64,000 nucleotides of DNA, from the NCBI GenBank assembly GCA_947258385.1, contig CAMYII010000033.1:31529-95528 (forward strand). Direction: 5' to 3'. Position 1 is the first letter of the stretch. Every line of letters begins with the position of its first letter. Shown one piece after another: positions 3,882 through 37,018 of this stretch. The notes below the pieces were generated by a model. The model was not told the DNA's origin. It saw only the letters and a program-made list of their open reading frames with translations, and made no database searches. The position numbers and the translations under genes were made by a program. This stretch comes from Acidiferrobacterales bacterium. GTDB taxonomy: Bacteria > Pseudomonadota > Gammaproteobacteria > Acidiferrobacterales > SZUA-150.

Positions 3882-3905
3882 CCATTAGAAACATTGTTCG
3901 GCTTT

Positions 3906-4631: not shown

Positions 4632-4957
4632 ATTTCCGATGAGGCTCAATCTTTCAGCTGACAAACGCGAGCACGTCAGTGCAAGCGTTCGATCGGCGAT
4701 CATGTTATAGGGCTCCGTCGGTAATAGTGCCCCTATATTTCCGTCGAAAACAACGATATTTTAGTATTAAAGCCACTGATTTATCGAGTGACAAGAGCGG
4801 CCCGCTTTGGATCGAGCAGGATTATTCTACTGACCTGGTTAATAAGCTAAAGCTGATACACCATTGCCGCGCAATAGCCGGTGTCCCCGGGTGATGCCCG
4901 GAGACGTGCACCAGCGGAGCACCGGAAGCTGCGGCCGGAAACCAGCGGTGACACAAG

Positions 4958-5064
4958 CTAGATTTCTGGGAGTGAATCGACTTTGATATAAGTCCAGCCG
5001 GACTGAAGGCGGCTGATGATGTGGTTCATTGCGGTCTTGTCCGTGCCGATACCCTCGATGATAT
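4958..5064 (-). pseudogene. orphan duplicate of the last ~35 codons of the anti-sigma gene (7959..8693)
   Basis: Hand alignment of 4958-5064 against 7959-8065 gives 107 nt with 12 mismatches. Of these, 7 are in the first 17 nt and 5 in the remaining 90 nt. The fragment translates as ...IIEGIGTDKTAMNHIISRLQSGWTYIKVDSLPEI*, compared with ...IIEGIGTDKTAMDHIIGRLQSGWTYIKVDLLLGI* in the intact gene. Confidence 0.85.
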
Positions 5065-5075
5065 TTAGTTCAATA

Positions 5076-5113
5076 TGTAAAAATGGCCGAGGCAGCGATC
5101 TGCCTCGGCCATT
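5076..5113 (-). terminator. rho-independent terminator of the peroxidase-like gene
   Basis: A perfect 14-bp stem AATGGCCGAGGCAG / CTGCCTCGGCCATT (5082-5095 / 5100-5113) has a CGAT loop. On the minus strand it is followed by TTTTTAC. Confidence 0.8.
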
Positions 5114-5152
5114 AAACGTAACTACAAGGTTCTTTTTATCGCCTGAATCAGA

Positions 5153-6874
5153 TCAACGACTCGAATATTTGTCGTGGTCATCCTCTTCATCATCCTCTTC
5201 ATCATCCTCGTCGTCATCATAGTCGTCATCGTACATGCTCAGGTAATTACCGATGTCATAGATATCTTCCCTGGGCAGACACATCAGGAAGTTCATCGGA
5301 TCTTCATCATAGATGGCCTCCTTGATGTCGTGGGCGTCTTCCCCGCGGACATCCTCATCGACTCGGCCACCGCTTGCATCCAGGCCATGGCAACCGGCAC
5401 AAGTCGTGGTGTAACGCTGCTTGCCCGAGATGCCGTCAAACGAATTCAGATAATCAGAGATCAACTGAATCTGCTCAGCGGTGAACGCGTTTTGCATGAA
5501 CTGCATGGCCGGCACGCCGTCCGGGAAGACATAAGTACCGTAGATCGCTCCCTCAATTGAGCAGCTCCTGGCGCCAATCACCTTGCGTGGCGCGTTTGGT
5601 GGTGGCAGCGTATACGCCGGATCGGGGTTGCCATGACATCCGATACAATAGGACATGTAAAGGCTCTCCCCCGTGGATGGCGTCATATAGCCGTCCGATA
5701 AGGTCTGCATGAAGGCGACAATGGCATCTTCCTCCTGGTCCGTTAGCCCGAGGTTGCCCAGCAACGGTGACAGATTATCCGCCACCTCCGGCGCAGGCCA
5801 CATTCCCGGTATGTCACGGGTGTTATAGAAGTGCACCACCTCCTTCAGGCTCTTGAATACCCCGTTGTGCATGTAGGCCTTCACAAAGCCCGAATGGTTG
5901 CGCTTGTCCACATTGCGCAGCGTGGGGGTCTTGTGTTTGCCGTAGTTCTGTGGTGCATACTGCTCCCATTCCGGCCTCGTGGCCAGGAAACCGCCCAGAC
6001 CTGGGTCAATCCAGTTGATCCCATCGGGATTGAACTCAGGAGGCTGGTAATAGAACGGATTTTCAGGGTTCTTGGGCACACCGATATTGTCAAAACCGAA
6101 GTCGGCAAACAGCGGTGGCTCACCGTTCGGCCCTGGCCCCATAGTATGACAGGCAGAACACAAGGCCTTCCCCTGGAACAGCTGCATGCCCATCTGCTCC
6201 TCAGGCGTTAGGGTTGCCGTACCAGCGAGGTAGTCGTCGAACTTGGAGCTGTACTGATTGACCTCGCTGGAGCCTTCGTAGTCGCCGATGGCCAGGCCGA
6301 TGCGGTGATAGGTCGCCATGTAGTTGCCCATCGAACAATCCAATGTGCCGGGACCAAAGGCCTGATTGAACAGTTCCATGTAGCTATGGCCTGTGAGGTG
6401 TTCGGCAAAATTGGATGCCTGCACGCTGTCACAGACCACCTTCTCACTGGCGTTGGCCATCTCGAGCGGATTCAGAAACGGTCCCAATGCCTGGTCGGCG
6501 GCAGGGCTCCCCAGCACCTCGCCGGTGGCGCGGCCATCCCAGAAGAGCCCCCCCACAAAGTCACCACCCACCATCTGGAAGTTGGGGCTGGGGGTCGCGT
6601 AGCCAGAGCTCGGTGGCTTACGATTGCCGAAGCGGCCCTTCACTGCACCCTCATACACCGCGCCATGGACATTGATCTCGTGCTCGGGTCCCGTCCACCC
6701 GACCTCCGGCAGGTGGCAAACGGAACAAGCCTGATTGTTCGGCGTGGATAAGGTGGGATCAAAAAACAGCGCCTTGCCCAGTTGCTCCTTGGGTGTCAGG
6801 GTCTGGGACATAGCGGTGGGTATCGTTATGAAACACAAAACAAATGCGACCAATGATAACAGCTTTCTTGTCAT
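5153..6874 (-). CDS. cytochrome c peroxidase/MauG-family protein fused to two extra c-type haem domains and a poly-acidic tail
   Basis: Has a signal peptide and four CXXCH motifs (CSVCH, CSACH, CIGCH, CAGCH). The C-terminal tail is DDDYDDDEDDEEDDEEDDHDKYSSR. AGGAGG lies 6 nt upstream of the ATG. Confidence 0.8.
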   Translation of the reverse strand: MTRKLLSLVAFVLCFITIPTAMSQTLTPKEQLGKALFFDPTLSTPNNQACSVCHLPEVGWTGPEHEINVHGAVYEGAVKGRFGNRKPPSSGYATPSPNFQMVGGDFVGGLFWDGRATGEVLGSPAADQALGPFLNPLEMANASEKVVCDSVQASNFAEHLTGHSYMELFNQAFGPGTLDCSMGNYMATYHRIGLAIGDYEGSSEVNQYSSKFDDYLAGTATLTPEEQMGMQLFQGKALCSACHTMGPGPNGEPPLFADFGFDNIGVPKNPENPFYYQPPEFNPDGINWIDPGLGGFLATRPEWEQYAPQNYGKHKTPTLRNVDKRNHSGFVKAYMHNGVFKSLKEVVHFYNTRDIPGMWPAPEVADNLSPLLGNLGLTDQEEDAIVAFMQTLSDGYMTPSTGESLYMSYCIGCHGNPDPAYTLPPPNAPRKVIGARSCSIEGAIYGTYVFPDGVPAMQFMQNAFTAEQIQLISDYLNSFDGISGKQRYTTTCAGCHGLDASGGRVDEDVRGEDAHDIKEAIYDEDPMNFLMCLPREDIYDIGNYLSMYDDDYDDDEDDEEDDEEDDHDKYSSR

Positions 6875-7230
6875 GGCTGTCCTCCTTTTTCGCGCTTTCC
6901 TTTTGGCTTTCTTTTTCCAATTCCTAATAGAGCACTGTGGTAGGTTTTATTTCATGGTGTATCCTCCTGTAAGCTACTAAATCATCGCAGATCATTATTA
7001 CATCATCGTGACATCACCCTGATGCCATCGCCCGCACCATCGGTCCATTATGGCTACGATGGAACAACAAAACTTGGACCCACTATCTTCCTGGGGTGAT
7101 CGTCACCTGTGTAAACTCAGGCGATTGAAACCCCGTAGAATACGACTGCCATTGTATGTTGTATGTCATTTATCATTATACTAATGTCGTTTGGCACAAG
7201 GGTTGCGTACCGATAACGATATATATGACA

Positions 7231-7244
7231 TTGACAAAAATCGA
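7231..7244. promoter_or_regulatory. degenerate FNR/CRP-type box TTGACAAAAATCGA upstream of the peroxidase-like gene
   Basis: Matches TTGA-N6-TCAA at 7 of 8 core positions. A perfect TATAAT (minus strand) starts 51 nt downstream of it. It lies about 360 nt upstream of the ATG, so this call is weak. Confidence 0.2.
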
Positions 7245-7729
7245 TCTAGAAACAGGAATCCTTACAATTTACTCCCGTAAGCAATCGACCACAACTTGGA
7301 ATTGTCCTTATCCACTCCAATCATCCCATCCGATACACCGGCCGTCGCCTTCGATAACCGTCGGCCCAGCATAGAGGCCAGCGTAGTAACAGCCCAAGGC
7401 GCCGTGTCCCTCATAAAACCCATACGAAAATGAATAGATATTGACGGCTCCCTGCCAAATTACCTCTCACGTATTTCGTTCATGTCAGCCAGCTAAGTCA
7501 TTGACGGTGAACAGTAGCTATACCCCGGTAACTATATAGGCAGGACGATCTTTGCATGACGAGCCTGGCGGAACAAATCACGGTAGAGAGCACGTCTTGA
7601 TGTGTGTCGTGGTGGATTGCAACCGACGGCCCATCCTGGCTATGTGTGCGACGTGGGCGGTATTGATGACTGGTGACTATCGTTTAATAGGACCCAATAT
7701 GCGCGGCCGCGCGCATGCCCGTTGTTACT

Positions 7730-7760
7730 GTCGGCCCACAAAAAGGCGGCCCGTGATGAA
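7730..7760 (-). terminator. rho-independent terminator about 200 nt downstream of the anti-sigma gene
   Basis: The minus strand reads GGCGAACCCGT-UCAUC-ACGGGCCGCC (10 bp with one bulge) followed by TTTTTG (plus-strand A-run 7730-7734). Confidence 0.7.
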
Positions 7761-7958
7761 CGGGTTCGCCACGGAAGGGCGAGCGCAGGACTTTCACACC
7801 GAGCAGGGTACGTAGGAACGACCCGCAGAGCGAGTAAGCCGCCCGTTCGCACTCAGCACACGGGCGTGCTGCGGGCCAGATCCTTTGTTGCAGAGAAAGC
7901 ACACACGCCACTGCGCGGATGCTGTACAACCGCAACCGAGAAATAGCAACAACACGGT
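7761..7958 (-). ncRNA. candidate structured 3'UTR or small RNA between the anti-sigma stop and its terminator
   Basis: The segment is GC-rich with no convincing ORF. It has nested helices, for example 7812-7818/7859-7865 enclosing 7830-7836/7850-7856. It ends at the terminator above. I recognised no family. Confidence 0.3.
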
Positions 7959-8693
7959 CTAGATTCCCAACAGCAAATCGACTTTGATATAAGTCCAGCC
8001 GGACTGCAGGCGGCCGATGATATGATCCATTGCGGTCTTGTCCGTGCCGATACCCTCGATGATATCCGGCGCAATCCCCTGCTCATGCAATAAACGAATG
8101 CCGTAGGCACAGGCGATGAAATGCACATTGTCACGTTCGCGCATCATGGCGATAACCTGGTCCTCATACGGGGACACACCGACACGCATGAAATCGAGCC
8201 CATCGGCATTGGCCACTACATCGATCTCATTGCCACGCGCCTCGTGTTCGTTTAGGAATTCCTGCGTATACGCAAGGGCGGCGGCAAACTGCCTGGGGTC
8301 CGACTCACTGATGTGCAGAATGATCCGATCAGCCTGTTGACCGGTGGCGGATGCAAGAACCGGCGTGGAATCACGGTCCATTTGTTTGCCGTAGTGGTAG
8401 CCGAGGGTCCCGACACCAAAGCTCACGAGCAGAACGGCAATGGATGCGGCCACTCTTAATGCGGACTGTTTCCAGATTGGGGTTCTTACGGTCCGCTGGT
8501 CGCTTGACGGTGCGCATGCATCACCAAAACCCAGCTTCATCAGGTCTTTCGCACGCCGCAAGCGATACACCCGTTCCCGTACCTCGGGGTCGTTATCCAT
8601 GGCCTTGATAATGGACTCGCAGTGGGCCGTATCAAGCTGGCCGTCCACGAATGCGCCCAATGTATGGTCATCAAAATAATCGGATTTCCGCAT
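7959..8693 (-). CDS. anti-sigma factor with one TM helix and a C-terminal DsrE/DsrF-like domain
   Basis: The N-terminus HTLGAFVDGQLD...VRERVYRLRRA is typical of ECF anti-sigma factors. The TM helix is ALRVAASIAVLLVSFGVGTLGY. The C-terminal RIILHISESDP...VVANADGLDFM...VHFIACAYGIRL...GWTYIKV resembles DsrE-like (COG1416-type) proteins. The gene starts 4 nt after the sigma gene ends. Confidence 0.8.
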   Translation of the reverse strand: MRKSDYFDDHTLGAFVDGQLDTAHCESIIKAMDNDPEVRERVYRLRRAKDLMKLGFGDACAPSSDQRTVRTPIWKQSALRVAASIAVLLVSFGVGTLGYHYGKQMDRDSTPVLASATGQQADRIILHISESDPRQFAAALAYTQEFLNEHEARGNEIDVVANADGLDFMRVGVSPYEDQVIAMMRERDNVHFIACAYGIRLLHEQGIAPDIIEGIGTDKTAMDHIIGRLQSGWTYIKVDLLLGI

Positions 8694-8697
8694 GGCC

Positions 8698-9249
8698 CTA
8701 CTCCACCAAACGCATGTGCCCCTTGGTCGCCGTGGACCTGGGGAAGACTCTTTCCAGCCTCGATAACAGATTCTGTCTCGCCGAATGCAGACGGCTCATG
8801 ACCGTGCCTATCGGGATATCCAGGACCCGGGCGACGTCGCAATACGAAAACCCTTCCAGATCAACGAGTGATATGACCTGACGCTGTTGCATTGGCAGGG
8901 TTGCCACCGCTCTTCGCACCCGGCTCACCATTTCCAGTTGCTGACAATTGCTAGAGGGTCCTGGGTCTTCCGAGGGCATGTACTCATCAAGCTCATCGTG
9001 TCGTTTGTTTCTCTGCAAATGGCGGTACCATTGGTTGTTCATGATACTGTAAAGCCACGCGAAAAGCCGGTTCTCATCGCGTAGCTGCTGGTTGTTGATA
9101 ATACCGGCGGCCATTGTCTCTTGAGCCAGATCATCGGCGAGCATTTCATCACCACACCAGGCGAGCGCCACGCGGTAGAGGCGGTCCCGCGATGCGGCAA
9201 TCCGACTCTTCAGCGACGAGGTGGAACAGCGTTTGGTCTTTTCTATCAC
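8698..9249 (-). CDS. ECF-family RNA polymerase sigma-70 factor
   Basis: The region 2 block is LYRVALAWCGDEMLADDLAQET...FAWLYSIMNNQWYRHL. The region 4 block is LPMQQRQVISLVDLEGFSYCDVARVLDIPIGTVMSRLHSAR. Confidence 0.9.
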   Translation of the reverse strand: MIEKTKRCSTSSLKSRIAASRDRLYRVALAWCGDEMLADDLAQETMAAGIINNQQLRDENRLFAWLYSIMNNQWYRHLQRNKRHDELDEYMPSEDPGPSSNCQQLEMVSRVRRAVATLPMQQRQVISLVDLEGFSYCDVARVLDIPIGTVMSRLHSARQNLLSRLERVFPRSTATKGHMRLVE

Positions 9250-9628
9250 TCTGGGTTAGATACTCGCAATGGCAAATTTATTCTCTTTTTTTGCACCTCG
9301 AACGGATAGACAGCAGATTGCGCCAAAAATTCCTGTGCTCCATTGAATATGAGTGACAAGCGATTAGTTAGCAATTGCTTCTAAAGGCTCAGTCGTTCCG
9401 CGTCAAACAATAACAGCCTGTCGTGGTCGTTGATTCGAGTCCTGCCTGAAGGCATTCATTCAGCGCCAAAACCGCCTTTATTAAGCGGCCAAAAAAATGA
9501 ATAAATTCCCTACTCAGGATATCCAGATAGGATGCGCGGCGAGCCTCGCTGGTGCGAGTACGGCTGCGCCCAAACCACCATGACTTTGAAAATAATCTTT
9601 AACTTATATTTGGCTGGAGGAGAAAAGG

Positions 9629-11200
9629 ATGGAGAAAAACACGAAACCAAAACTCGTTTTAGGCCTGTTGTATGGATTAGGCCTCACGTTACTCACGGGA
9701 ACATCGATTGCCCATGATGTGGGCGATGCCGGGCTCCCGGTCTGTCTCGAAGGCAACTTCATGGTGGCCGACGCCATGAACGCACCCTTTTCGAATATCC
9801 CGGGTCCCGGTCGCGTCCTTGAGATGAACATCTTTACCGGTGAACGCGGCATTACGGTCGATAATCCCTTCGCCGAGCCCGGCACCCATGATGTTCTCTC
9901 CACCGGCATCGCCATGCCCGGTCCCTGGAAGCCCACGGGTGTGCTGTCCGGCGGTTTGAACGGTCACGCCTTTATCAGCGGCGCGGCCCAGCACACATTG
10001 ACCGAGTTCCACCGCGATGGCACGCCCATCAAGTCGGTCCGGTTGCCGACGGCGCCCCGCGTCGACGCGAGTTTTGGTGCGGTGCCGCGGCTGCTCGGTT
10101 CGCAGATGATGCCGAACGGCAACCTCATCCAGAACGTTTGCGACGCCAACTTCTTTAACGCCTCGAACTCCGACACTATCCTCCCCGGTGAACCCGACCC
10201 GGCCGGCGACGGCAATGCATCGAATCTGTATTTCCCGCCGGTGTATTCGACACCGGAGCGGGCCGCGAACAGTCGTCTGCTGGTTCTGGACCAGGAGACC
10301 CTGAAAGTGGTCGACGAGTACAGCGCCCCGGATGATCCGCGCTGGAGCTGCATGGCGGGCGTGATCTTCAGCGACGAAGGTATGTACGTCAGCATGTTCC
10401 ATGGCGCCGCGGTGTTCGTCATCGACTGGAAGGCAGGTTTGGGTGACGACAGCACCGGTGTTGGAAGCAACGGAGAGTTGGGTGATGATGACCGTCAAGA
10501 TCACAGAAAGAAATCATTCAAGCTCGGCCAGAAAAAGAACAAGGCGAAGGTGATACGGGTGATCGACCTGCTGGGTCCGGACGCCACGATGGACGATCCG
10601 AGACGGCGTGACTCGCTGCGCGCCATCACCTTCGATGAGGGCGGCAATCTGTACGCGACCTTCCGCGCGCGTTCGAGAGACTGCATAAGGGGAGAATTCC
10701 CCGGTACCCCGAACGGCTGCAATCCCGGCGTGTTCCGTCAGCATGTTGCCGTCGTGCCCTTCGGCGAGAGCTATCCGACCCGCACCATTGCGCTGGACCC
10801 CGGTGTCAATGTCATCGCCGGCATTCGCACCAACCGCATGTCCGGGGTAGCCTGTGACGCCATCAACCCGGTCGACCCGGCTACGGGCAAGCGATCCGAT
10901 CCCGATGCCTGCGACGTCGAAACGCTCATGGTCGCCGCGTCCGCCTTCAACCCCGGCTGCGCCGAGACGGGTCCTGTGGGCACCAACCCCTGTTTCAGAC
11001 CCGGTGGGGGCGTGGGTGAGTACCTGATCACGCCCGAGGCCGCCGATGCGCATGACGGCAACTGCAACGGCGATCCGTTCGGCGAGAACAGCGGATGCGC
11101 CCGGCCCGTCGCGACCTTCGAGTTCAGGGATGAGTTCGGTAATGTGGAAACTATCGATCCACGGATGCTCATGACCATCCATGAGGCGTTCGTGCAGTGA
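9629..11200 (+). CDS. secreted Cys-rich hypothetical protein (523 aa)
   Basis: Has a signal peptide (LVLGLLYGLGLTLLTGTSIAHD), a GGAGGAG RBS, and third-position GC bias throughout. There is an internal charged insert, DDDRQDHRKKSFKLGQKKNKAK. I recognised no family. It is divergent from the ECF sigma operon. Confidence 0.75.
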   Translation: MEKNTKPKLVLGLLYGLGLTLLTGTSIAHDVGDAGLPVCLEGNFMVADAMNAPFSNIPGPGRVLEMNIFTGERGITVDNPFAEPGTHDVLSTGIAMPGPWKPTGVLSGGLNGHAFISGAAQHTLTEFHRDGTPIKSVRLPTAPRVDASFGAVPRLLGSQMMPNGNLIQNVCDANFFNASNSDTILPGEPDPAGDGNASNLYFPPVYSTPERAANSRLLVLDQETLKVVDEYSAPDDPRWSCMAGVIFSDEGMYVSMFHGAAVFVIDWKAGLGDDSTGVGSNGELGDDDRQDHRKKSFKLGQKKNKAKVIRVIDLLGPDATMDDPRRRDSLRAITFDEGGNLYATFRARSRDCIRGEFPGTPNGCNPGVFRQHVAVVPFGESYPTRTIALDPGVNVIAGIRTNRMSGVACDAINPVDPATGKRSDPDACDVETLMVAASAFNPGCAETGPVGTNPCFRPGGGVGEYLITPEAADAHDGNCNGDPFGENSGCARPVATFEFRDEFGNVETIDPRMLMTIHEAFVQ

Positions 11201-11230
11201 ATCTTTGAATATGTCCTGAAGGGAAAAGAC

Positions 11231-11267
11231 CCCGGCAGGGCAGGAAACTGCCCGCCGGGCGTTTTTT
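11231..11267 (+). terminator. rho-independent terminator
   Basis: CCCGGCAGGGCAG-GAAA-CTGCCCGCCGGG (one bulge) followed by CGTTTTTTGG. Confidence 0.75.
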
Positions 11268-11384
11268 GGTATCTGGCATTAATAAAAGTACAGTGCTGAA
11301 TACAGGTTTAAATATCAACATCGGCCAGGCCTGGATGCCTCCATCTACTATCCCGGCACAACACATAGTTAAGAGGACGTTTCG

Positions 11385-11915
11385 ATGGGACTCTTGATAC
11401 CGCATGCCTTTGTTGTCGTACTTGCGAGCTGCACTCATGATCCCAGCCGGATTCTGGGCCACGAAGAAAAAATAATCCCCGGAGGCAAGGTCATTGAATA
11501 CGGAATATATCGATTAGTGAAAGCAGGCCGGCTCGAAGAAAATTCGACTACCAGCACAGGGACAATAATCACCAAGCCGGTCCTGGAACACATCAAACGA
11601 ACGAACCGCATTCCTATCGAAAAAAACACCTACTTCGCCTATCAGTACCGCATATCACGGCTTCCAGACCAGACCCGGACCAGGCCCGTGCTCGAGCTGA
11701 AACGGGTCGTCAAACACCCGGCAATGATCTTACCCGATGGTTCCAGATCAAACGGCTCAGAACGTATAATCCGCGCAAAAGTCAATGCTGGGCAGGTCAT
11801 TGCGCTCGACGGATATGCCTTCAACGAAGACTACGAGATGGTGGCGGGCGACTGGATCTTTCAAATCTGGTACAAGGAACATCTGCTTGTCGAGCAGAAG
11901 TTCACAAGCTACTGA
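11385..11915 (+). CDS. lipoprotein, DUF3859-like
   Basis: Has the lipobox VVLASC. The C-terminal DGYAFNEDYEMVAGDWIFQIWYKEHLLVEQKFT resembles the DUF3859 pattern from memory. Confidence 0.6.
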   Translation: MGLLIPHAFVVVLASCTHDPSRILGHEEKIIPGGKVIEYGIYRLVKAGRLEENSTTSTGTIITKPVLEHIKRTNRIPIEKNTYFAYQYRISRLPDQTRTRPVLELKRVVKHPAMILPDGSRSNGSERIIRAKVNAGQVIALDGYAFNEDYEMVAGDWIFQIWYKEHLLVEQKFTSY

Positions 11916-12052
11916 CCAAAAGAAAGAAAGCCCTCTAACTAGGCGCTGCCGGATTGGCAAGCGGCAGCCGTGTGCACGGCGAGGCCGCGTCGCTGCAAAC
12001 CATTGGGCAGCGAGAGTCCGTGCCCATTATTCTGTTTTTTAAGAGGAGTGAC

Positions 12053-13678
12053 ATGGTAGGCCAAATATACCGCTGGGTCGACCGGACCATTTTAGAACTT
12101 GGTCGGGAGCTCCGACTGTCCTATCTGCCGCCGTTGATGGTTTATCTGGCGGCCGGCATCTCCGGTCTGACCAGTATCGTCGGCACCTTCTTCGTCAAAG
12201 ACTATCTGGGTCTGTCCGCCGCATTTCTTGCCGCCCTGGCCTTCTGGACGAATGTGCCCTGGGTGTTGAAGATGCCTATGGGTCATCTTGTGGATCTGAT
12301 ATGGCGTTTTAAATCACTCCTGGTATGGCTGGGCGCGGGCGTTATCGCGATAAGTCTCGGTATCATGATCGGGCTGCTCAGCCATACCGATGCAATGCGG
12401 CAAATCATGCCCATTGGCGCCTGGTATGTGATAAGTATGCTATTGGCACCCATCGGTTATGTGATTCAGGACGTCGTTGCGGATGCCATGACGGTAGAGG
12501 CGGTGCCCCGCGTCGACCGCCAGGGCCGGCCCATCGACGCGGCGACGAAACGCTTGATGCACACGACGATGCAGACCCTCGGACGGGTCGCCATCATCGG
12601 CGGCGGCATCATCGTAGCGCTGCTGAACGTGGCCATGTTCACCGGCGTGGAGACCATGTCGGAGGCGGACAAGGTCAGCGTCTACGTAGATATATTCCAG
12701 TTGGCACTGATTATCCCGCTTGTCTCGGTACTCGGCGTCACGCTGGGCGGTTGGCTGAAGCTGCGCGATATGCGCGGCTTACGACACAAGGGCTTTGGTG
12801 TTAAAGAGGCCTGGGAGATAGTTCACGGCCATATCGAGAAGACCAGCCCTAATTGGTGGATCCTCGGCGGCAGCCTTGTTTTTGTGATATTCACGTTGTC
12901 GATGGGACTGAGCGACGTACCCTACAACCAGGAGATTATCTTCTCGGGGTCCCTGGCGATCGTTCTTTTCCTGATGACGCGGTTGGTGCAGGTACTGGAT
13001 GTGGAAGCGCGGCGGGTACTGGTCGGGACGGCTGTCATCATCTTCGTTTACCGCGCCATGCCGACACCCGGTCCCGGCGAGACCTGGTGGATAATCGATG
13101 AGCTCGGCTTTGATCAACGGTTCCTGTCGATACTCTCGCTAATCAGCGCCGCGCTTGCCCTGTTCGGCATGTTCATCTTTCGCCGGTTCATGGCCGAGAG
13201 GTCTATCGCTTACGTCATCGCCTTTTTGACCATCGTCAGTACCGTGCTGTACCTGCCTGTTGTCGGGATGTATTACGGCCTGCACGAGTGGACGGCGGCG
13301 AATACGGGCGGCGTCGTCGATGCGCGCTTCATTGCGCTGGTCGATACGGCGCTGGAATCACCGCTCGGCCAGGTGGCCATGATCCCCATGCTCGCCTGGA
13401 TCGCAAACTCCGCACCCGCGAATTTGAAGGCCACCTTCTTTGCGGTAATGGCCTCTTTCACCAACCTCGCATTATCACTCGCGCAACTCGGCACCAAGTA
13501 CCTGAACCAGATCTTTACCGTGAAACGCGAGGTGACGAATCAGGTGACAGGCGCCGTGATGGTGTCGGCGGATTACAGCGAGCTTGGGTTTCTGCTGATC
13601 GCCGCGACGGTCATTACCTTTGCGCTGCCCATGGCTGCGATTCTGTTGGTCAGGGCCACACCCTTGCGCAGCGCCTAG
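12053..13678 (+). CDS. multi-pass membrane transporter, BT1/folate-biopterin-like MFS
   Basis: About 12 hydrophobic segments. The start is taken at ATG 12053 (AAGAGGAG upstream) rather than the track start at 11954. MVYLAAGISGLTSIVGTFFVKDYLGLS resembles the BT1 family N-terminus; the family call is tentative. Confidence 0.75.
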   Translation: MVGQIYRWVDRTILELGRELRLSYLPPLMVYLAAGISGLTSIVGTFFVKDYLGLSAAFLAALAFWTNVPWVLKMPMGHLVDLIWRFKSLLVWLGAGVIAISLGIMIGLLSHTDAMRQIMPIGAWYVISMLLAPIGYVIQDVVADAMTVEAVPRVDRQGRPIDAATKRLMHTTMQTLGRVAIIGGGIIVALLNVAMFTGVETMSEADKVSVYVDIFQLALIIPLVSVLGVTLGGWLKLRDMRGLRHKGFGVKEAWEIVHGHIEKTSPNWWILGGSLVFVIFTLSMGLSDVPYNQEIIFSGSLAIVLFLMTRLVQVLDVEARRVLVGTAVIIFVYRAMPTPGPGETWWIIDELGFDQRFLSILSLISAALALFGMFIFRRFMAERSIAYVIAFLTIVSTVLYLPVVGMYYGLHEWTAANTGGVVDARFIALVDTALESPLGQVAMIPMLAWIANSAPANLKATFFAVMASFTNLALSLAQLGTKYLNQIFTVKREVTNQVTGAVMVSADYSELGFLLIAATVITFALPMAAILLVRATPLRSA

Positions 13679-13879
13679 ACGATACAGGCTTAATGATGGA
13701 GACCGAATGAAGGAGCGAGCGCAGGAATATGCGGTCTTCCCCGCCCCTGTGGGGCCACATATAAAATGGATCATTCCGATATTACTAATTCTGGATGTTG
13801 TTCGAACCGTGCTCGATTTGAACTCCGGATCTCCCGGATCGACGGACCGATTCGCCGTCGGCCGGATGATGAGGTGATC

Positions 13880-29199: not shown

Positions 29200-30402
29200 T
29201 CATCCATAGCGGCCGTCGACACGCGGCTGGACAAGCATTGGGAAATAGTTCCAGAGAAACACGGTAAATGCGGATATCCACAGAATCTGGGAAAAGGCAA
29301 TCCATATTTGATAATGCGTTGAATCAAATAACGGCAAAAATACCCTGATAGCCGCGCTACCCAACAGCGCCGCAAACACCGGAAACAGAATCGCGGGTGG
29401 CTCAGAGATGTTTCGTCCTGTGTGGCCCAGTATTACACGCGCCATCATGCCCACTGTCATCACGCCGATACCGCCAACGGCAAATGCGTGTATGGCGAGG
29501 TAAGGGGATACGCCTAGCACATAGCTGAAAAACTTCAGCGCAAAGCCGACGACCAGGAAGCCATAGGCAAGATAGAGCACCCACAGCAATGGCTTCCTGA
29601 AGATTTCAGCCGTATACCATCCCGCCATTTTGATCCCGTGCATCACAAACAGGATTCCCGCCAGCCCGGCGATGAGTCCGTGATAGCTGGTAAACACATC
29701 CAGGACGGCGAATATCGCGAACAGCACGACAGTTGACACATCCAACCACGACCAATTCTTTAATGCTACGGGATTGTCGACGCCCCGCTCGATAAAAAAA
29801 GGAATCACTCTTCTGCCAATGACAAAAATAAGACTGAGTATGACATAAAGGCCGGCGTACAAGCCCCAATGAAGCCCTTCCGACAACCAACCCAGAGCGC
29901 CCATGTAAAAGACCAGGTTACCGCAAAGCAGTAACGCAACATGCAGGATGACCAGGAGCTGTCGCCACTGTCTCGCCTTGATCACGGGATATGAGATCGC
30001 CGCGAGCAGAGTGCCCATGAACAGCATATCGAAGCCGGCCATCATCGCCACGATAAACTCCGCGTGGATAAAGGACGCCGCCCGCGCCAGCAGCCAGAGC
30101 GTGAATAGCGCGAGCAACGGGAACCGATGAACCGTCTGCACCCCGGTCCAGTTCTTCACAGCCGTCAGCAAAAAACCCGCGATCACGGCGACAGCATAGC
30201 CGTAGATCAGTTCATGGGCATGCCAGAGCTGCAGCGAAAGCCCCGCCAGCCCACCCTGCCAGCCCAGAAAGTAAAGCGCCATCCATACCCCCATGGACAG
30301 GATCGCCAAACCGGCCGCGCCCAGGAAAAACGGGCGGAATCCTAGATGAAGCAATGGATAGCTAAGGTCGTTGTTATTCGTGTTTCCCTCTATGGTAAGC
30401 AT
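29200..30402 (-). CDS. nnrS: NnrS family haem-copper membrane protein
   Basis: From ATG 30402 (or 30414): LLHLGFRPFFLGAAG, with about 12 TM segments and a length of about 400 aa. The N-terminal 62 residues of the track ORF look non-coding. Confidence 0.85.
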   Translation of the reverse strand: MLTIEGNTNNNDLSYPLLHLGFRPFFLGAAGLAILSMGVWMALYFLGWQGGLAGLSLQLWHAHELIYGYAVAVIAGFLLTAVKNWTGVQTVHRFPLLALFTLWLLARAASFIHAEFIVAMMAGFDMLFMGTLLAAISYPVIKARQWRQLLVILHVALLLCGNLVFYMGALGWLSEGLHWGLYAGLYVILSLIFVIGRRVIPFFIERGVDNPVALKNWSWLDVSTVVLFAIFAVLDVFTSYHGLIAGLAGILFVMHGIKMAGWYTAEIFRKPLLWVLYLAYGFLVVGFALKFFSYVLGVSPYLAIHAFAVGGIGVMTVGMMARVILGHTGRNISEPPAILFPVFAALLGSAAIRVFLPLFDSTHYQIWIAFSQILWISAFTVFLWNYFPMLVQPRVDGRYG

Positions 30403-30452
30403 GACTGTTCCCATCCCTATAACTGACGATAATGAGTCTTCAACAGCCGATC

Positions 30453-32000
30453 CTAATGGCTCGTCCCCGCCGACCGGGTGATCTTGTTGTGGACGTTGTA
30501 TTTTCCCGACGGTTTTCTCATGGGCAGGCGTTTGATCTCTTTCAGGCTCTTGGCGTCGTAGACCACCACCGCGCCGTCCATGTCCCAAATGCTGAGCAGC
30601 GCGTAACGACCGTCCTTGGTGAACTCGACATGGGCGGCGGTCTTGCCGGGGGCGGGCCTGAGGGTCTTGACGATCTTGAGGCTGCGCTTGTCGATAACAT
30701 GCACGAGGTCTTTGTTGGGACCGAAGAACACATCGACCCAGGCATAGGGCGTGTTCTCATGCGAGCGCATGAAAAAGCCCGGTCCTTTAGTGTCGATGCG
30801 CTTGATCGTCTTCCAGTTTGTCATGTCGATGACGCTGACCACCCCTGCTTTCAGGTTCGGCGTGGCCAACACCGGCCGCCCTTTATACTCCCAGGTAATG
30901 CCCGAGCCCAGGTGCGGCATGCCCGGGAGATCGATGTCGGCGATCTTGCGTCCGACGATGAGGTTCACCACCTGGCCGTTCTTGGCGTTGCGCGCGGCGC
31001 CGATCAGATGGCGGTAGGACTGATCGAAGAAAAAGTCGTCAAGATAGTCGTCCAACCGGATACGGCGCACCGGGAACGCGCCTTTGGCGGCCAGGCCCTC
31101 GCCCATGCGGTAATCGTGCACCAGGCCCGGATAGACCGGCTCGGCGTCCTTACCGTAGGGGATCTCCCAGACCTCGGGGATGTCCTTCAACGCAGCGATA
31201 AAGCTCTGCCGCGGCGCGGCGTCGTAAACCGCGCTGACGCGCGAGCCGCTGCCGGCCTTGTCCTGCACCGCGATGAGCTTTAACGGCGTGAGATCAACGG
31301 CGTCCAGCACCACCAGGGTGTGCGGCAGGTAATTGGCCACCATGACATAGCGCCCGTCGCTGGATACGGCCGCGTTGCGGGTGTTGATGCCGGCGCGAAT
31401 CTCGGCAACGAGGCTTAAGCTGTACATATCGAACTTGCTGATCCAGCCGTCGCGCGAGGCCAGGTAGACGAAACGCCCGTCGGGCGAGTACTTGGGCCCG
31501 CCGTGCAGGGCAAAGCGCGTGGCGAAGCGATGAATGGGCTCAAAGCGGTCGCCGTCGAGCACGGTGGCGTGATGATCCCCCAGTTCCACCACCAGAAACA
31601 GGTTCAAGGGGTCGGCCTTGTAGGCCGGTCTGGCCGGCAGCTTCGTTGGGTCATGGTGCAGGATGTGGGAGGCCTTGATCTTTTCCAGACCCCAGACCGG
31701 CACCTGCGGCAGCGGCGTATAGATCAGCTCGACCAGCGCCTGTGTCTGCCCGGTGTTGAGCCTCTTGCCATAGGCCGGCATCTGGGTCGCCGGCCGCCCG
31801 GCCTCGATCACCTTGCGCGCCTCGGCGCGCCGCAAGCGCCGCAGGTTCTCCGGCAGCAGCGCCGGTCCCATGCGCCCTAAGCGGTCACTGCCGTGGCAGC
31901 TCGCGCAGTGCGCCTGATACAACCGCTCGGTGGGCGGGGTCTCGCCCGCCTGCGCCGCCCCGGGCAGCGCCAGCAGCAGGAAAGTGAGCACTCGCTTCAT
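30453..32000 (-). CDS. nirN: cytochrome cd1-family protein NirN (haem d1 maturation)
   Basis: Has a signal peptide, a single CASCH c-type domain, and then a d1-type beta-propeller sequence. It follows nirJ. Confidence 0.8.
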   Translation of the reverse strand: MKRVLTFLLLALPGAAQAGETPPTERLYQAHCASCHGSDRLGRMGPALLPENLRRLRRAEARKVIEAGRPATQMPAYGKRLNTGQTQALVELIYTPLPQVPVWGLEKIKASHILHHDPTKLPARPAYKADPLNLFLVVELGDHHATVLDGDRFEPIHRFATRFALHGGPKYSPDGRFVYLASRDGWISKFDMYSLSLVAEIRAGINTRNAAVSSDGRYVMVANYLPHTLVVLDAVDLTPLKLIAVQDKAGSGSRVSAVYDAAPRQSFIAALKDIPEVWEIPYGKDAEPVYPGLVHDYRMGEGLAAKGAFPVRRIRLDDYLDDFFFDQSYRHLIGAARNAKNGQVVNLIVGRKIADIDLPGMPHLGSGITWEYKGRPVLATPNLKAGVVSVIDMTNWKTIKRIDTKGPGFFMRSHENTPYAWVDVFFGPNKDLVHVIDKRSLKIVKTLRPAPGKTAAHVEFTKDGRYALLSIWDMDGAVVVYDAKSLKEIKRLPMRKPSGKYNVHNKITRSAGTSH

Positions 32001-32004
32001 GGAT

Positions 32005-33201
32005 TCACCCGGCCGTGCGCCGGGCGCTGTAGGGGGTCAGTTGCAGACGTGCGGTCGATCCGCTCACACCGATTTCCTCATCATCGAGGTAACAGGCCGG
32101 GTCCTCAGCCCAGGGATCACCGCTCAGCTGGTGGGCGCGCACACGGGTGTTGCCGCCGCAGACATCGAGGTAGCGGCACTGCCCGCAGCGGCCCTTGAGC
32201 GGGCGCGGGCGTGCTTTAAGCCCGGCCATGAGGGGATCGGAGGTGTCCGGCCAGATCTCGGAGAACGGGCGTTCGCGCACATTGCCCAAGCGATAATGCC
32301 ACCAGAAGGTATCCGGATGGACGTCGCCAACGTTGTCGATGTTGGCGATGTTGACCCCGGAGGAATTGCCGCCCCACTGCGCGAGCTTCGCGCGCAGATG
32401 GGCCTCGCGTTCCGGAAAGTGTTCTCTGACCCATTGCAACAGATACACGCCGTCGGCATCGTTGTTGCCGGTGACGTACTCGCGCGGCCGGCCTTCCTGC
32501 AGCTGGCGCCAGCAGGCCTCGAACAACAGGTCCATGGCCTGTCGCGTGGTGGCGAGCACGGCATCGTCCCTGCGGTTGATGTTGCCGCGGCCGGCGTAGT
32601 TCAGATGGGACAGGTAAAACTTCTCGATACCAAGGCGTCCCATCAACGCCAGCAGCGACGGCAGCTCGGGTGCGTTGTCCCGCGTCAGCGTGAAGCGCAT
32701 GCCGACCTTGATGCCGTGGTCGTGGCACAGCTCCATCGCCCGCACCGAGGCATCGAAGGCGCCGGCCTTGCGCCGGAACCTGTCATGGGTATCTCGCAGC
32801 CCATCGATACTGATGCCGACATAGTCGTAGCCGAGCGCCGCAATCCGATTGATGTTGCGCTCGTCGATCAGAGTGCCGTTGGTGGACAGCCCGACGTAAA
32901 AACCCATGGCCTTGGCACGCCCGGAAATCTCATAGATGTCCGGGCGCAACAGCGGCTCGCCGCCGGAGAGGATCAGCACCGGCACGCCGAACTGTTTGAG
33001 ATTGTCCATCACCGTGTAGACCTCGTCGGTCGACAGCTCGCCGGGGAAGTCCTTGTCCGCCGATATCGAGTAACAGTGCTTGCAGGTGAGGTTGCAGCGG
33101 CGGATCAGGTTCCAGATCACGACGGGGCCGGGGGGGTTACGCTTCGGCCCGATTGGTGTCGGTTCGATCAGCTCCTGCATGTATTGGGTTAGACGGAACA
33201 T
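32005..33201 (-). CDS. nirJ: radical SAM haem d1 biosynthesis protein NirJ
   Basis: Has the CNLTCKHCY radical SAM motif and a C-terminal Cys cluster (CGQCRYLDVCGG). Confidence 0.9.
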   Translation of the reverse strand: MFRLTQYMQELIEPTPIGPKRNPPGPVVIWNLIRRCNLTCKHCYSISADKDFPGELSTDEVYTVMDNLKQFGVPVLILSGGEPLLRPDIYEISGRAKAMGFYVGLSTNGTLIDERNINRIAALGYDYVGISIDGLRDTHDRFRRKAGAFDASVRAMELCHDHGIKVGMRFTLTRDNAPELPSLLALMGRLGIEKFYLSHLNYAGRGNINRRDDAVLATTRQAMDLLFEACWRQLQEGRPREYVTGNNDADGVYLLQWVREHFPEREAHLRAKLAQWGGNSSGVNIANIDNVGDVHPDTFWWHYRLGNVRERPFSEIWPDTSDPLMAGLKARPRPLKGRCGQCRYLDVCGGNTRVRAHQLSGDPWAEDPACYLDDEEIGVSGSTARLQLTPYSARRTAG

Positions 33202-33262
33202 AATAAATCAGATACAAGATACAAGTTGCAAGGTACAAGTTGCGAAAGAAGCGTGTATTGAT

Positions 33263-33400
33263 CTCAAACCCTGGATGCCGCTGGTCTTAACACACAAAGT
33301 AAGCGGAGGCGCGGAGGCGCAGAGAACTGCGATATGTTTAAAAAAAGCTCGGATAAAGAATAACCCTCCGCGTCTTGGCGACTTTGCGTTCTCTGCGTCA
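33263..33400. repeat. copy 1 of a ~135-bp dispersed repeat with internal inverted repeats (MITE/REP-like)
   Basis: Alignable by hand to 62863-62993 (shared blocks CTCAAA, CCCTGGA, ACNCAAAG..GGCGC.GAGG.CGCAGAGAA, ACTTTGCGT.CTC.GC). It contains a perfect 10-bp inverted repeat CGCAGAGAAC / GTTCTCTGCG (33318-27 / 33388-97). Confidence 0.7.
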
Positions 33401-33413
33401 ATTCCGATTGCCC

Positions 33414-33941
33414 TCACGTGCCGATCCGCAGGCCCATCTTCTTCAAGATGCGGGTGCTGTAGAGCACGGTGTGCCCATGATTGGCGTCGCCGAGCAGCCC
33501 GGCGATCCGCGCCACCTTGTCCTCCACCTCCTCGCGGCTCTTGCCGTGCACCATGGCGAACAGGTTATAGGGCCAGAGCGGCAGATGACGCGGACGATGA
33601 TAGCAGTGACTGACGAAATCGAGCGCACCGACGCGGCGCCCCAGCTCATTCACGCTTTCATCGGGCACGTCCCACACCGACATGCCGTTGGCCCGGTAGC
33701 CGAGCGCGTAATGATTCGGCACCGCGCCGATGCGGCGGATCACGCCGGCGGCCTGCATGCGCTGCAGGCGCTGCATGACCTCCTCGGCCGGCACGCCGAG
33801 CCCCGCCGCCAGCACGTGGTACGGCCTCGGAGACAGCGGCAGCCCGGCCTGGGTCGCCGCGATCAGACCGCGATCCACGGCATCGAGCCCGCCTTTGGCG
33901 GGCTCCAACGCGTCCTTACTCACCCTCGCTGCCGTGGACAT
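33414..33941 (-). CDS. nirH: sirohaem decarboxylase subunit NirH (AsnC/Lrp-like)
   Basis: From ATG 33941. Contains GLPLSPRPY, GVIRRIGAVPNHYALGYRANGMSVWDV and CYHRPRHLPLWPYNLFAMVHG. Confidence 0.8.
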   Translation of the reverse strand: MSTAARVSKDALEPAKGGLDAVDRGLIAATQAGLPLSPRPYHVLAAGLGVPAEEVMQRLQRMQAAGVIRRIGAVPNHYALGYRANGMSVWDVPDESVNELGRRVGALDFVSHCYHRPRHLPLWPYNLFAMVHGKSREEVEDKVARIAGLLGDANHGHTVLYSTRILKKMGLRIGT

Positions 33942-33954
33942 CAACGCTACCGGC

Positions 33955-34269
33955 CTACTTGCAGCTCTGGGCCGCGAAATAGGCGGCGAGGTTGTCGATG
34001 TCCGCATCGGATAACGCGCCGACCATCGCCTTCATGGACGGATCGTTGCGTGCGCCGCTCTTGTAGTCCTTGATGGACTTGGCCAGGTATTGTGCCTTCT
34101 GGCCCGCCAGGTTCGGGTAATTCGGCGCGGCGCTGACGCCGTTCGAGCCGTGGCAGCCGGCGCACATCGCCGACTTGGCCTTGCCGGCCGCGGCATCGCC
34201 CGCCAGCACGGACCCTTGTGCGCCGAACAGCGCCGCTGCAACGAAAAGAAAAATGGCTTTATGTTTCAT
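33955..34269 (-). CDS. monohaem class I cytochrome c, periplasmic
   Basis: Has a signal peptide and CAGCHG...PNYPNLAGQ...Y...M, typical of c552/c4-type domains. Confidence 0.9.
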
Positions 34270-34314
34270 ATAAACTCCTCCATTGTTTGAACTGTTAATC
34301 AGTCAATCGTCGGG

Positions 34315-34758
34315 TTATGCCTCGAAGCGCAATCCCACGAAATACTCTTCGATCTTGGGCATGTTGTAGACCGGGTAACCGCTGCGCGCCTCAATCGCGT
34401 CGATGACTTCGCTGATACGTTCAGGCGTTTCCGTCGCCAGCACAAACCACATATTGAGCGCATGGTCGCGCGCATAGTTGTGCGCCACCTCTGGGAAGTC
34501 GTTGACGTAATCGGCGACGCGCTCGAACTCCTGCTCCGGCACCTGCATGGCGCACAGGGTCAGGGCGCCGCCCAGGCGCTCGGCGTGGTACATGGGCCCG
34601 AAGCGGGAGAGCACGCCCTGCTCCCGCATTCGGTACAAGCGCGCGAGCAGCTTGTACTCGTCGGTGCCCAGTCTCTCCGCCACCACCGCATAGGGCCGCT
34701 CGCATACGGGGAAGCCGCCCTGCAGCTCGTTGATAATGGCGCGGTCGAGCTCATCCAT
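34315..34758 (-). CDS. nirG: sirohaem decarboxylase subunit NirG
   Basis: From ATG 34758 (MDELDRAIINELQGGFPVCERPY...AHNYARDHALNMWFVLA). It overlaps the nirL stop by 8 nt. Confidence 0.8.
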   Translation of the reverse strand: MDELDRAIINELQGGFPVCERPYAVVAERLGTDEYKLLARLYRMREQGVLSRFGPMYHAERLGGALTLCAMQVPEQEFERVADYVNDFPEVAHNYARDHALNMWFVLATETPERISEVIDAIEARSGYPVYNMPKIEEYFVGLRFEA

Positions 34759-35272
34759 TGGCCGTCTTCCTCTGTGCTTGCACGCCGGCGCCGCCGTCAA
34801 CATAACGGGCGCCGCGCTGCTTGAAGCGGCGCTTGCTGAACAACACCTGGTATGGAATCCCCTCGAGCCCGGCGGCTCGGATAATCTCATCCAGCCGCGC
34901 CTGCACCCTCTCCCGGTCCTTGCCGTGGATCATGCAGAACAGATTATAGGGCCACAGCGGCAACCGCCGCGGACGGCGGTAGCAGAGTGTGACGCAGTCG
35001 AATTCCCCGAGCCGCCTGCCGATCTCGTCGACGCTGTCATCGGGCACGTCCCAGACCACCATGGCGTTGGCGCGGTAGCCGAGCTCTCGGTGGCGCACCA
35101 CCACACCCAGGCGTTTGATCAGACGCTGATCGAGTAATTCAGCAAGGCGCGCGATCACCTCGCGCTCGCCGATACCGAGCGCCATGGCGATGGCCGCATA
35201 GGGGCGCGGCGCCAGCGGCAGCCCGTCCTGTATCAGCGCGATGAGCGCCCGGCCGGTCGCGTCTAACACCAT
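34751..35272 (-). CDS. nirL: sirohaem decarboxylase subunit NirL
   Basis: Contains GLPLAPRPY, RHRELGYRANAMVVWDV and CYRRPRRLPLWPYNLFCMIHG. It overlaps the nirD stop by 10 nt. Confidence 0.8.
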   Translation of the reverse strand: MVLDATGRALIALIQDGLPLAPRPYAAIAMALGIGEREVIARLAELLDQRLIKRLGVVVRHRELGYRANAMVVWDVPDDSVDEIGRRLGEFDCVTLCYRRPRRLPLWPYNLFCMIHGKDRERVQARLDEIIRAAGLEGIPYQVLFSKRRFKQRGARYVDGGAGVQAQRKTANG

Positions 35273-35799
35273 AAGGGGAACCCCAGGTCGATGTGGTAAT
35301 GCGCCTCCATCGGCAGATCCAGTAGCTGCAGGCCCGTGGCGGCGCGGATCTCGTCCAGCACTTCCCCGACGCGCCCGCGGCTTCCGGCCGTAACCACGAA
35401 CCAGAGATTGAACTCGTGCTCGCGCTCATAATTGTGATTTACCTCGTCATAGCCATTGATGAGCCGCGCGACTGACGGCAGGCGTTCCGCGGGCACCGCG
35501 ATGGCGGCCAGCGTGCTGGCGCCGGCGCGCCCCGGGGCAAAGACCGGTCCCACACGGCCCACCATGCCGCGTTCCTGCAACGCATGCAGGCAGGCGAGCA
35601 CCTCGGACTCACTCGCCCCGAGCTCGCGGGCGATCTCGGCATACGGCGTCGGCGACAGCGGAAAGCCGCGCTGATAGTCGTTCAACAGGCGTTTCTCCAG
35701 CTCGCTCAGCTGCGATACCCGATCCGTATCCGTCACCAACCGTTTTACCTCAACGCTTGATGGCGGAAGGCCTTGTGATTTGTTGTTCGTTTGCGGCAT
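35263..35799 (-). CDS. nirD: sirohaem decarboxylase subunit NirD
   Basis: Contains LLNDYQRGFPLSPTPY and VNHNYEREHEFNLWFVV. Confidence 0.8.
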   Translation of the reverse strand: MPQTNNKSQGLPPSSVEVKRLVTDTDRVSQLSELEKRLLNDYQRGFPLSPTPYAEIARELGASESEVLACLHALQERGMVGRVGPVFAPGRAGASTLAAIAVPAERLPSVARLINGYDEVNHNYEREHEFNLWFVVTAGSRGRVGEVLDEIRAATGLQLLDLPMEAHYHIDLGFPLWC

Positions 35800-35838
35800 G
35801 TACCGTATTTCCTCTGCGCAGGACCCTTTGACTCAAGG

Positions 35839-37014: not shown

Positions 37015-37018
37015 GTCA

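Follow-up and report, generated by a model that had tools for sequence, protein, structure and literature searches.

A peroxidase-bearing insertion at the 3' end of a putative anti-sigma gene in an Acidiferrobacterales bacterium

The window, a stretch of 64,000 nucleotides (64 kb) from an Acidiferrobacterales bacterium (contig CAMYII010000033.1), carries a sigma/anti-sigma gene pair whose second gene ends in a sequence that recurs 3 kb further on, and the two copies of this gene end bracket a gene for a four-haem peroxidase-like protein. Read along the minus strand, the order is the extracytoplasmic function (ECF) sigma factor gene, an open reading frame (ORF) of 244 aa that is the putative anti-sigma gene, a gene-free interval of 1084 nt (7958..6875), the peroxidase gene, its terminator, the left copy of the repeat, a 254-nt non-coding flank and a YkuD/LdtF-like gene. 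The features on which the following account relies are these:

9257..9283, minus strand: ECF-type promoter motif GAATAA-N16-ATCTA, upstream of the sigma gene
8698..9249, minus strand: ECF sigma factor gene (Pfam Sigma70_r2, Sigma70_r4_2 and Sigma70_ECF)
7959..8693, minus strand: putative anti-sigma gene, 244 aa, starting 4 nt downstream of the ECF sigma gene
7959..8065, minus strand: right repeat copy, the live anti-sigma 3' end, 35 codons plus stop, with the atypical tail DLLLGI
7782..7958, minus strand: first part of the insert, homologous to the anti-sigma 3' untranslated region (UTR) in the related contig L085 but diverged (~60% identity)
6875..7781, minus strand: remaining spacer, ~0.9 kb, with no coding, RNA-family or homology signal
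5153..6874, minus strand: four-haem peroxidase-like gene, 573 aa, with signal peptide, CCP_MauG, two cytochrome c domains and an acidic C-terminal tail
5077..5113, minus strand: intrinsic peroxidase terminator, a 14-bp stem with a 4-nt loop at 5082-5113 and then a T tract, adjoining the non-homologous junction
4958..5064, minus strand: left repeat copy, an orphan in-frame 3' fragment reading NIIEGIGTDKTAMNHIISRLQSGWTYIKVDSLPEI and then a stop, with the family-consensus tail
4799..4957, minus strand: resident anti-sigma 3' UTR and flank, contiguous with the orphan, ~90% identical to the related contig L084 and more diverged but homologous in L085 and L088
3906..4703, minus strand: YkuD/LdtF-like gene, the resident downstream neighbour, used to find relatives
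4799..13651, no strand assigned: larger accessory segment of ~8.85 kb, with the sigma/anti-sigma pair, the peroxidase insert, a 523-aa gene, DUF3859 and BT1

The repeat and the DNA that it brackets

The two copies of the gene end (4958-5064 and 7959-8065) align without gaps and are identical at 95 of 107 nt, which leaves 12 mismatches, and a repeat search lengthens the match to 114 nt (4951-5064 / 7952-8065, 87% identity) with a start-to-start spacing of exactly 3001 bp. The 90-nt core (4975-5064 / 7976-8065) holds 5 mismatches (blastn E 1.8e-35). The initial annotation had described a 107-nt repeat with 12 mismatches, 5 of them in the inner 90 nt, and with copies exactly 3001 bp apart; alignment and blastn both agree with this description, and blastn returned no third copy in the 64-kb window. 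Within the repeat there are identical blocks of 38 nt (the longest) and 31 nt, and 7 of the 12 mismatches are clustered in a single 10-nt block in the last five codons, with the stop and the codon before it conserved. The left copy has kept its frame and its stop codon and has no gene body upstream; by comparison with the L085 allele described below, this fragment may end approximately 10 nt further on, at ~5075. Local alignments of the outer flanks of the two copies are no better than those of shuffles, and gapped extension of the repeat was rejected, since it adds nothing at the inner end and finds just weak ungapped similarity beyond the stop.

Over the 28 nt beyond the stop (4930-4957) the ungapped identity between the two copies is 50%, while the 99th percentile for random pairs of 28-mers from the window is 46%. 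Compared with the anti-sigma 3' UTR of L085, the 90 nt beyond the live stop give a stop-anchored alignment with a z of 5.0 (0 of 1000 shuffles were as good), and the similarity reaches ~7782, with 106 of 176 columns matched in a local alignment (z 3.6). The insert thus starts with a diverged anti-sigma end followed by its UTR, which makes it look like a piece of a homologous locus and not like a cassette with arbitrary ends.

The protein encoded within the insert matches Pfam CCP_MauG (E 7.6e-30) and contains four CxxCH motifs, at residues 50, 239, 410 and 492; by its domains and haem motifs it belongs with the bacterial di-haem cytochrome c peroxidases (CCP/MauG) and is predicted to be a peroxidase. 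Its C-terminus (window 5153-5230) is a tail of ~24 residues, nearly all of them Asp and Glu. The nearest homologue, at L006 (9246-11785), is 80% identical at the amino acid level and 79% at the nucleotide level; it lies beside a divergent LysR-type regulator, and the flanks of the two genes share no homology, the similarity ending at the ends of the coding sequence (CDS). Downstream of the peroxidase gene, the terminator palindrome (5082-5113) is a strong fold as DNA (z -5.8) and lies ~18 nt from the left copy of the repeat.

The gene-free part of the insert gave few signals of its own. A six-frame Pfam search of the spacer (6875-7958) at E <= 1 found no relevant protein domain; an integrase pseudogene, looked for in the same way, was discarded, the search having given merely a chance match to MbtH. 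The remaining spacer was also considered as a remnant of two extra genes present in L085, and does not match them, and no second copy of the spacer or terminator DNA exists in any related locus retrieved. A structured RNA in the GC-rich segment was likewise rejected (fold z -0.96 against shuffles; Rfam empty at gathering scores), and at E <= 1 Rfam gave two chance eukaryotic or archaeal matches only, both within the peroxidase CDS. As a consequence, the contents listed in the initial annotation stand as regards the four-haem peroxidase and the terminator, but the GC-rich segment that it called structured has neither a significant fold nor an Rfam match, and its first ~170 nt (7782-7943) are diverged UTR.

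Related alleles, the empty site and the old gene end

Close relatives of the locus were reached through the members of the 90% clusters of two neighbouring genes, the YkuD gene and the gene for the 523-aa protein. These contigs, L081-L088, derive from ERZ27237539, JGI 3300027822, JGI 3300001750, SRR21285573 and SRR1313734. A large protein search was misleading in this respect: it placed the nearest anti-sigma relative at 61% identity, the 85% identical protein of L085 being masked by a 61-aa cluster representative from a contig end. Contig L085 (ENA, 20.6 kb) is 89.8% identical at the nucleotide level to window 7959-13679 over 5.8 kb, and its orthologues of the anti-sigma and sigma proteins are 85% and 87% identical to those of the window. 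Its anti-sigma stop directly abuts a homologue of window 4696-4942 (score 71.5, compared with 12.3 +/- 1.6 for shuffles), and neither the spacer nor the peroxidase gene is present at its anti-sigma 3' end. Contig L088, which derives from a different sample (JGI), has the same sequence as L085 across the empty-site region. The allele that the initial annotation proposed to look for, with nothing between the anti-sigma gene and the sequence left of 4958, is therefore present in two contigs, and relative to them the window carries an insertion that has displaced the resident gene end. L085 has, in addition, two extra genes of 297 and 288 aa without Pfam matches, which separate the anti-sigma flank from YkuD.

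The question of which gene end is the old one can be addressed with the protein family. The consensus of 25 homologues has the C-terminus ...W.YIKVDSL.EI, and the commonest residue at each position among 83 homologues with a six-residue tail gives DSLPEI. The tail of the orphan, DSLPEI, equals the family consensus at all six positions (the tails of L084 and L085 are NSLPEI and DSLPKI), whereas the tail of the live gene is DLLLGI, one L of which stands at a position that is L in 0 of the 83 family tails. Since the orphan carries the consensus tail and the live gene the aberrant one, the displaced fragment appears to be the resident end and the tail now in use the newcomer. Together with the empty site, the orphan's consensus tail bears out the proposal that an insertion left this footprint, in which one border has an intact gene end and the other a displaced one. 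The orphan also has N at a site with D in 104 and E in 4 of 108 homologues, a substitution that would fit relaxed constraint.

Other relatives show what else can happen at this locus. The Logan contig L084 has kept YkuD and the flank, together with one 3' fragment of the anti-sigma gene (1440-1600). A junction with 1-nt microhomology connects this fragment to the middle of the 523-aa gene, at the point that corresponds to window position 10846. This fragment ends 4 nt from the place where the orphan of the window stops matching the gene, yet the partner is a different one; the coincidence may reflect shared orphan ancestry and a deletion near the terminator palindrome, or two independent breaks at a fragile spot. 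A fragile hairpin at the breakpoint in the intact gene was examined as a candidate and dropped (fold z -0.98, not significant). In the ~90% identical sister contigs L081-L083, the entire segment 4799-13651 is absent, and the junction GACAAG|GGCCAC (L081 5376-5380) has AG microhomology; the last 27 nt of BT1 are kept in these contigs, which suggests deletion of the accessory segment. With the alleles of L084 and of L081-L083, the locus presents itself as a mosaic, deletion-prone accessory region.

The anti-sigma 3' UTR exists in three mutually diverged versions (window 4799-4957, window 7782-7958 and L085 6852-7020), with 60-70% identity and an indel of ~130 nt. Such diverged UTRs beside coding DNA that is ~90% identical suggest that alleles have been replaced repeatedly in the stretch immediately 3' of the anti-sigma gene. 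At the other side of the flank, a PhzF-family gene lies directly downstream of YkuD in all four relatives (L081 6458-7237, L084 3139-4023, L085 2567-3346), with NUDIX next in L081 and L082, and this gene is missing from the window at 3882-3905.

Junctions, mechanism and competing explanations

The two ends of the insert differ in kind. The inner boundary is sharp: 38 of 38 identical nt are followed by random sequence at 5064/5065 (possibly ~5075), beside the terminator. The opposite boundary is gradual, with 94% identity in the coding core and ~60% across ~170 nt of 3' UTR when compared with L085. One junction is therefore homologous and the other non-homologous, and, in agreement with the initial annotation, no integrase is present, either in the insert (six-frame Pfam) or among the ~50 ORFs of the window. 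On these grounds, the repeat is on balance probably the scar left when homology-driven recombination inserted a net 3001 bp into the anti-sigma 3' end.

According to this explanation, the incoming DNA would have been one unbroken piece of a sigma/anti-sigma locus, related but diverged, in which a peroxidase gene lies downstream of the anti-sigma gene, and the piece would have comprised the anti-sigma 3' end, its own 3' UTR, the ~0.9-kb spacer, the four-haem peroxidase gene and the terminator. A crossover in the conserved gene end would have joined this DNA to the resident gene, which would now finish with the incoming DLLLGI tail and the incoming UTR. The far end of the incoming DNA, just beyond the terminator, would have become attached, with no homology at the join, to a point inside the resident gene end; because of this join, the last ~35 codons of the resident gene and its UTR would have been moved 3 kb downstream, surviving there as an untranslated orphan. 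Both the mechanism (a homologous crossover within the conserved gene end and an illegitimate join) and its direction are inferred. Two routes would be alike possible, homology-facilitated illegitimate recombination with a linear fragment or a single Campbell-type crossover with a circularised 3.0-kb fragment. The other illegitimate junctions with microhomology at the locus (1 nt in L084, AG in L081-L083) would favour a reading that is homology-driven at one end and illegitimate at the other.

A four-way comparison of the left copy, the right copy, L084 and L085, in which positions are counted from the stop, bears on the way in which the two copies were exchanged. All the changes specific to the right copy lie at position 17 or nearer to the stop, those specific to the left copy lie at positions 16, 49, 57, 64 and 69, and the 31-nt identical block stands between them at 18-48. 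A split of this kind is what one reciprocal crossover or a site-specific recombinase would produce (exact U test p = 0.016), and it counts against the explanation preferred here; the signal is lost (p = 0.17) when the tail block is taken as one mutational event, and the left-specific changes can be read as drift in a dead fragment. For these two reasons the comparison does not choose between the two homology-driven routes.

The same split is one of the arguments for site-specific integration, in which the insert would be a minimal element without an integrase, similar to a cis-mobilizable element (CIME): a 3001-bp circle with an attP that mimics the anti-sigma 3' end, acted upon by a recombinase in trans at a core of 31 or 38 nt. 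An identical block of 31 nt does part the lineage-specific differences, direct repeats bracket the unit, an element-borne 3' end rebuilds the gene, as in e14 and icd/icdC (PMC13626634), and an empty site exists in L085 and L088. However, the 2.9 kb and the ~50 ORFs of the window contain neither an integrase nor a remnant of one, the partition of differences weakens to p = 0.17 with the tail block as one event, and the site is not seen to be reused. The last point comes from a distant comparison of 71 sigma/anti-sigma loci in species-representative genomes, where 0 of 71 have a duplicated gene-end fragment or other cargo at the anti-sigma 3' end; no close peroxidase homologue was found in these loci, and no left-flank synteny in 22 loci of the Thiogranum or Thiohalobacter type.

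The search for a mobile element was equally negative in other places. None of the ~50 ORFs across the window has a recombinase or transposase domain, the window contains no tRNA genes, and the ends of the insert have no inverted repeats. Neither the anti-sigma family nor the peroxidase gene was found on viral contigs, nor the cassette DNA on plasmids, and JGI metagenomes scanned for exact patterns of the gene end and of the flank gave no match to either. The initial annotation had also raised the possibility that the insert occurs elsewhere beside other gene ends, and no such occurrence was found. In terms of known classes of elements, a transposon or insertion sequence does not agree with the absence of terminal inverted repeats and of a transposase, nor with a duplication that is 107 nt long and diverged; an integron cassette does not agree with a plain GC stem and T-tract terminator, with the absence of GTTRRRY at 5060-5080 and with the absence of IntI; and of the features of a site-specific element, the att-like direct repeats and the unoccupied site are present, while an integrase and reuse of the site, or the element elsewhere, were not found. 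With no integrase remnant, no tRNA, no reuse of the site in 71 loci and no second, viral or plasmid copy of the cassette, site-specific integration of a mobile island is an unlikely explanation; the same holds for the specific suggestion of the initial annotation that the insert is a decayed or minimal island, or a cassette mobilised in trans, because neither an integrase nor a cognate element was found in the window or in the related loci.

A more speculative version, to which we assign a low probability, regards the 3001-bp unit as a minimal mobile cassette that mimics a gene end, with the anti-sigma 3' end and UTR as a portable attachment sequence, and that would excise as a circle and re-enter the genomes of related sulfur oxidisers by means of RecA or of a recombinase in trans. 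If this were true, a gene-end-mimic cassette would be spreading a peroxidase gene beside a sensory sigma/anti-sigma module.

Returning to homology-driven insertion with the peroxidase side as the incoming one, some further observations weigh against it. The in-gene core has at most one lineage-specific change, even though the tail and the UTR are the most diverged of all the alleles, and so little change in the core would be unexpected had the entire right copy been acquired from a distant donor. A donor genome with a DLLLGI anti-sigma gene, a UTR of the 7782-7958 type and the peroxidase gene in series was not found among the genomes searched, and the context of the nearest peroxidase homologue (L006) is unrelated, with homology that ends at the CDS. 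Finally, the direction is drawn from parsimony: a SLP(E/K)I tail is found in three contigs (L084, L085 and L088), followed in each by this flank, and in the wider family, and the peroxidase arrangement occurs only in the window.

The structure is symmetric, so that its sequence alone does not fix the direction, and the events could be reversed. The DLLLGI anti-sigma gene, its UTR and the peroxidase gene would then be resident, and the orphan, the flank and the YkuD side would have been imported from a strain similar to L084 or L085, with the import anchored by homology further left and joined illegitimately just beyond the terminator. The orphan and flank are ~90% identical to L084, the anti-sigma fragment of L084 is cut within 4 nt of the same position, and the whole 1-18 kb region is mosaic among relatives, all of which would suit such an import. 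Against it, L084, L085, L088 and the distant family pair the SLP(E/K)I tail with the flank, the peroxidase arrangement is confined to the window, and both sides are ~90% identical to relatives, so that neither looks foreign. We consider this reversed course of events rather unlikely.

Two further explanations are highly improbable. The first is a tandem duplication in situ of the segment that extends from the gene 3' end through the peroxidase terminator, after which one copy would have been largely deleted and the copies would have diverged. The repeats are direct and on the same strand, as a duplication would leave them, and two Thiogranum metagenome-assembled genomes show that a second sigma/anti-sigma pair 3.6 kb downstream is possible in the family (L011, 13208-14323; L016, 7385-8669); these second pairs, however, are old full-length paralogues and not fragments. 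Moreover, the divergence is uneven (94% identity in the core compared with ~50-60% just beyond the stop), which is not expected of a recent local duplication, the aberrant tail belongs to the live copy and not to the dead one, and no close relative has the spacer or the peroxidase gene; these three facts are the reason why tandem duplication is disfavoured. The second pairs of L011 and L016, the sole ones among the 71 loci, are a phenomenon separate from the repeat of the window. They are full-length but diverged and are decaying, with a frameshifted sigma gene and, in L011, an internal deletion in the anti-sigma gene. Between the pairs there are three genes on the opposite strand, encoding a 171-aa protein that is DsrE-like by sequence, a 440-aa protein and one of ~240 aa; the 436-aa equivalent of the 440-aa gene in L001 has a faint Porin_O_P match.

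The second of these is a chimera of two co-occurring strain variants produced by metagenome assembly, to which we give as little credence as to tandem duplication. The contig that contains the window, 153.6 kb long, is judged to derive from a metagenome assembly, and three samples each contain at least two alleles of the locus (L081 with L086, L082 with L085, and L083 with L088). Nevertheless, the two copies are nowhere identical over more than 38 nt, and the terminator and the fragment meet at 5064/5065 without a shared k-mer, which a k-mer chimera would require; a chimera is unlikely for the reason that some real genome must hold this junction.

Known systems, regulatory context and the wider region

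Gene ends replaced by incoming DNA are known from two kinds of system. In E. coli K-12, e14 and phage 21 insert into icd and substitute a slightly different 3' end that keeps the gene intact, and icdC is the displaced old end (PMC13626634). The insert of the window similarly supplies a substitute 3' end, with the original end at the far border as a diverged fragment, and if the two copies recombined, one hybrid gene end would result. They differ in that e14 is a prophage of 15 kb that encodes an integrase and excises upon SOS induction, while the insert measures 3.0 kb, has no recombinase gene and was not found to recur at the site. In Rhs and type VI secretion system (T6SS) proteins, on the other hand, C-terminal displacement has been attributed to homology-facilitated illegitimate recombination (PMC5361080). 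The window shares with displacement in Rhs, contact-dependent inhibition (CDI) and T6SS systems an anchor of homology, a new 3' tip with cargo downstream, a non-homologous far end, an old tip orphaned downstream and the absence of an integrase. In terms of what defines such displacement, the homologous anchor, the non-homologous opposite junction and the retained orphan were all observed, and a donor locus was not. Those systems differ in that toxin tips with their immunity genes are exchanged under diversifying selection and leave arrays of orphans, while the window holds one event in a regulatory gene that alters five codons only and whose cargo is a redox enzyme. CIMEs also carry short cargo between direct repeats that include a gene 3' end, with no recombinase of their own; their att sites are those of a known family of integrative and conjugative or mobilizable elements (ICE/IME), whereas no cognate element or integrase was found in the window or in the 71 related loci. 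The architecture is thus shared with icd/icdC and with displacement in Rhs, CDI and T6SS systems, and as a recombination scar of an already known type it is unsurprising to a specialist.

The gene that received the insert encodes a protein with a cytoplasmic N-terminus, a single hydrophobic span and a C-terminal domain similar to DsrE/MTH1491; the family profile matches PDB 1l1s (MTH1491, DsrE-like) at residues 123-237 (E 8.7e-12). The 244-aa protein has no match in Pfam or NCBIfam, and no anti-sigma domain model fits it; the label "anti-sigma" follows from its position, its topology and the conservation of the pair, since the sigma gene and the 244-aa gene are kept together across the 71 related loci. 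The homologues (P0002-P0120) form a family of ~244-aa membrane proteins paired with an ECF sigma factor in Gammaproteobacteria of the sulfur-oxidiser type (Thiogranum, Thiohalobacter, symbionts), and the DsrE/MTH1491-like domain suggests, as far as sequence can tell, an anti-sigma factor that senses sulfur compounds.

A conserved promoter-like motif GAATAA-N15-17-(C/T)ATCTA lies ahead of the sigma gene in dozens of related loci (L004-L085) and occurs once only in the 64-kb window. It was not found ahead of the peroxidase gene, which is therefore not visibly wired into the ECF regulon by a promoter copy of its own; its transcription probably starts at its own promoter or proceeds by read-through across the 1.1-kb spacer. 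Further upstream, many related loci have on the plus strand the element TTTATTCC (equal to GGAATAAA on the opposite strand), which may serve a divergent gene.

With regard to the remainder of the window, the first ~18 kb have a GC content of 0.49-0.58, and most of what follows has one of 0.60-0.66 (0.55-0.58 in three 2-kb bins). The low-GC part contains small miscellaneous genes (CsrA, DUF6471, GST, GFA, methyltransferase, NUDIX and YkuD), and the 1-18 kb part is consistent with a flexible genomic region. At 29200-41759 there is a denitrification-type cluster with NnrS, three cytochrome cd1-family proteins, three NirD/L/G/H-like regulators or decarboxylases, a radical SAM protein, a COX1-family (NorB-like) protein and a cytochrome c.

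The locus offers a clean natural case of bacterial gene gain by recombination at a conserved gene end, for which the occupied allele, the empty allele and two deletion derivatives have all been recovered from related environmental genomes. It also indicates that a duplicated gene end without an integrase does not necessarily imply a decayed island. For the organism itself, the event altered the last five residues of the putative anti-sigma protein and placed a peroxidase gene downstream of it, which could matter for redox or sulfur stress if the two are co-expressed.

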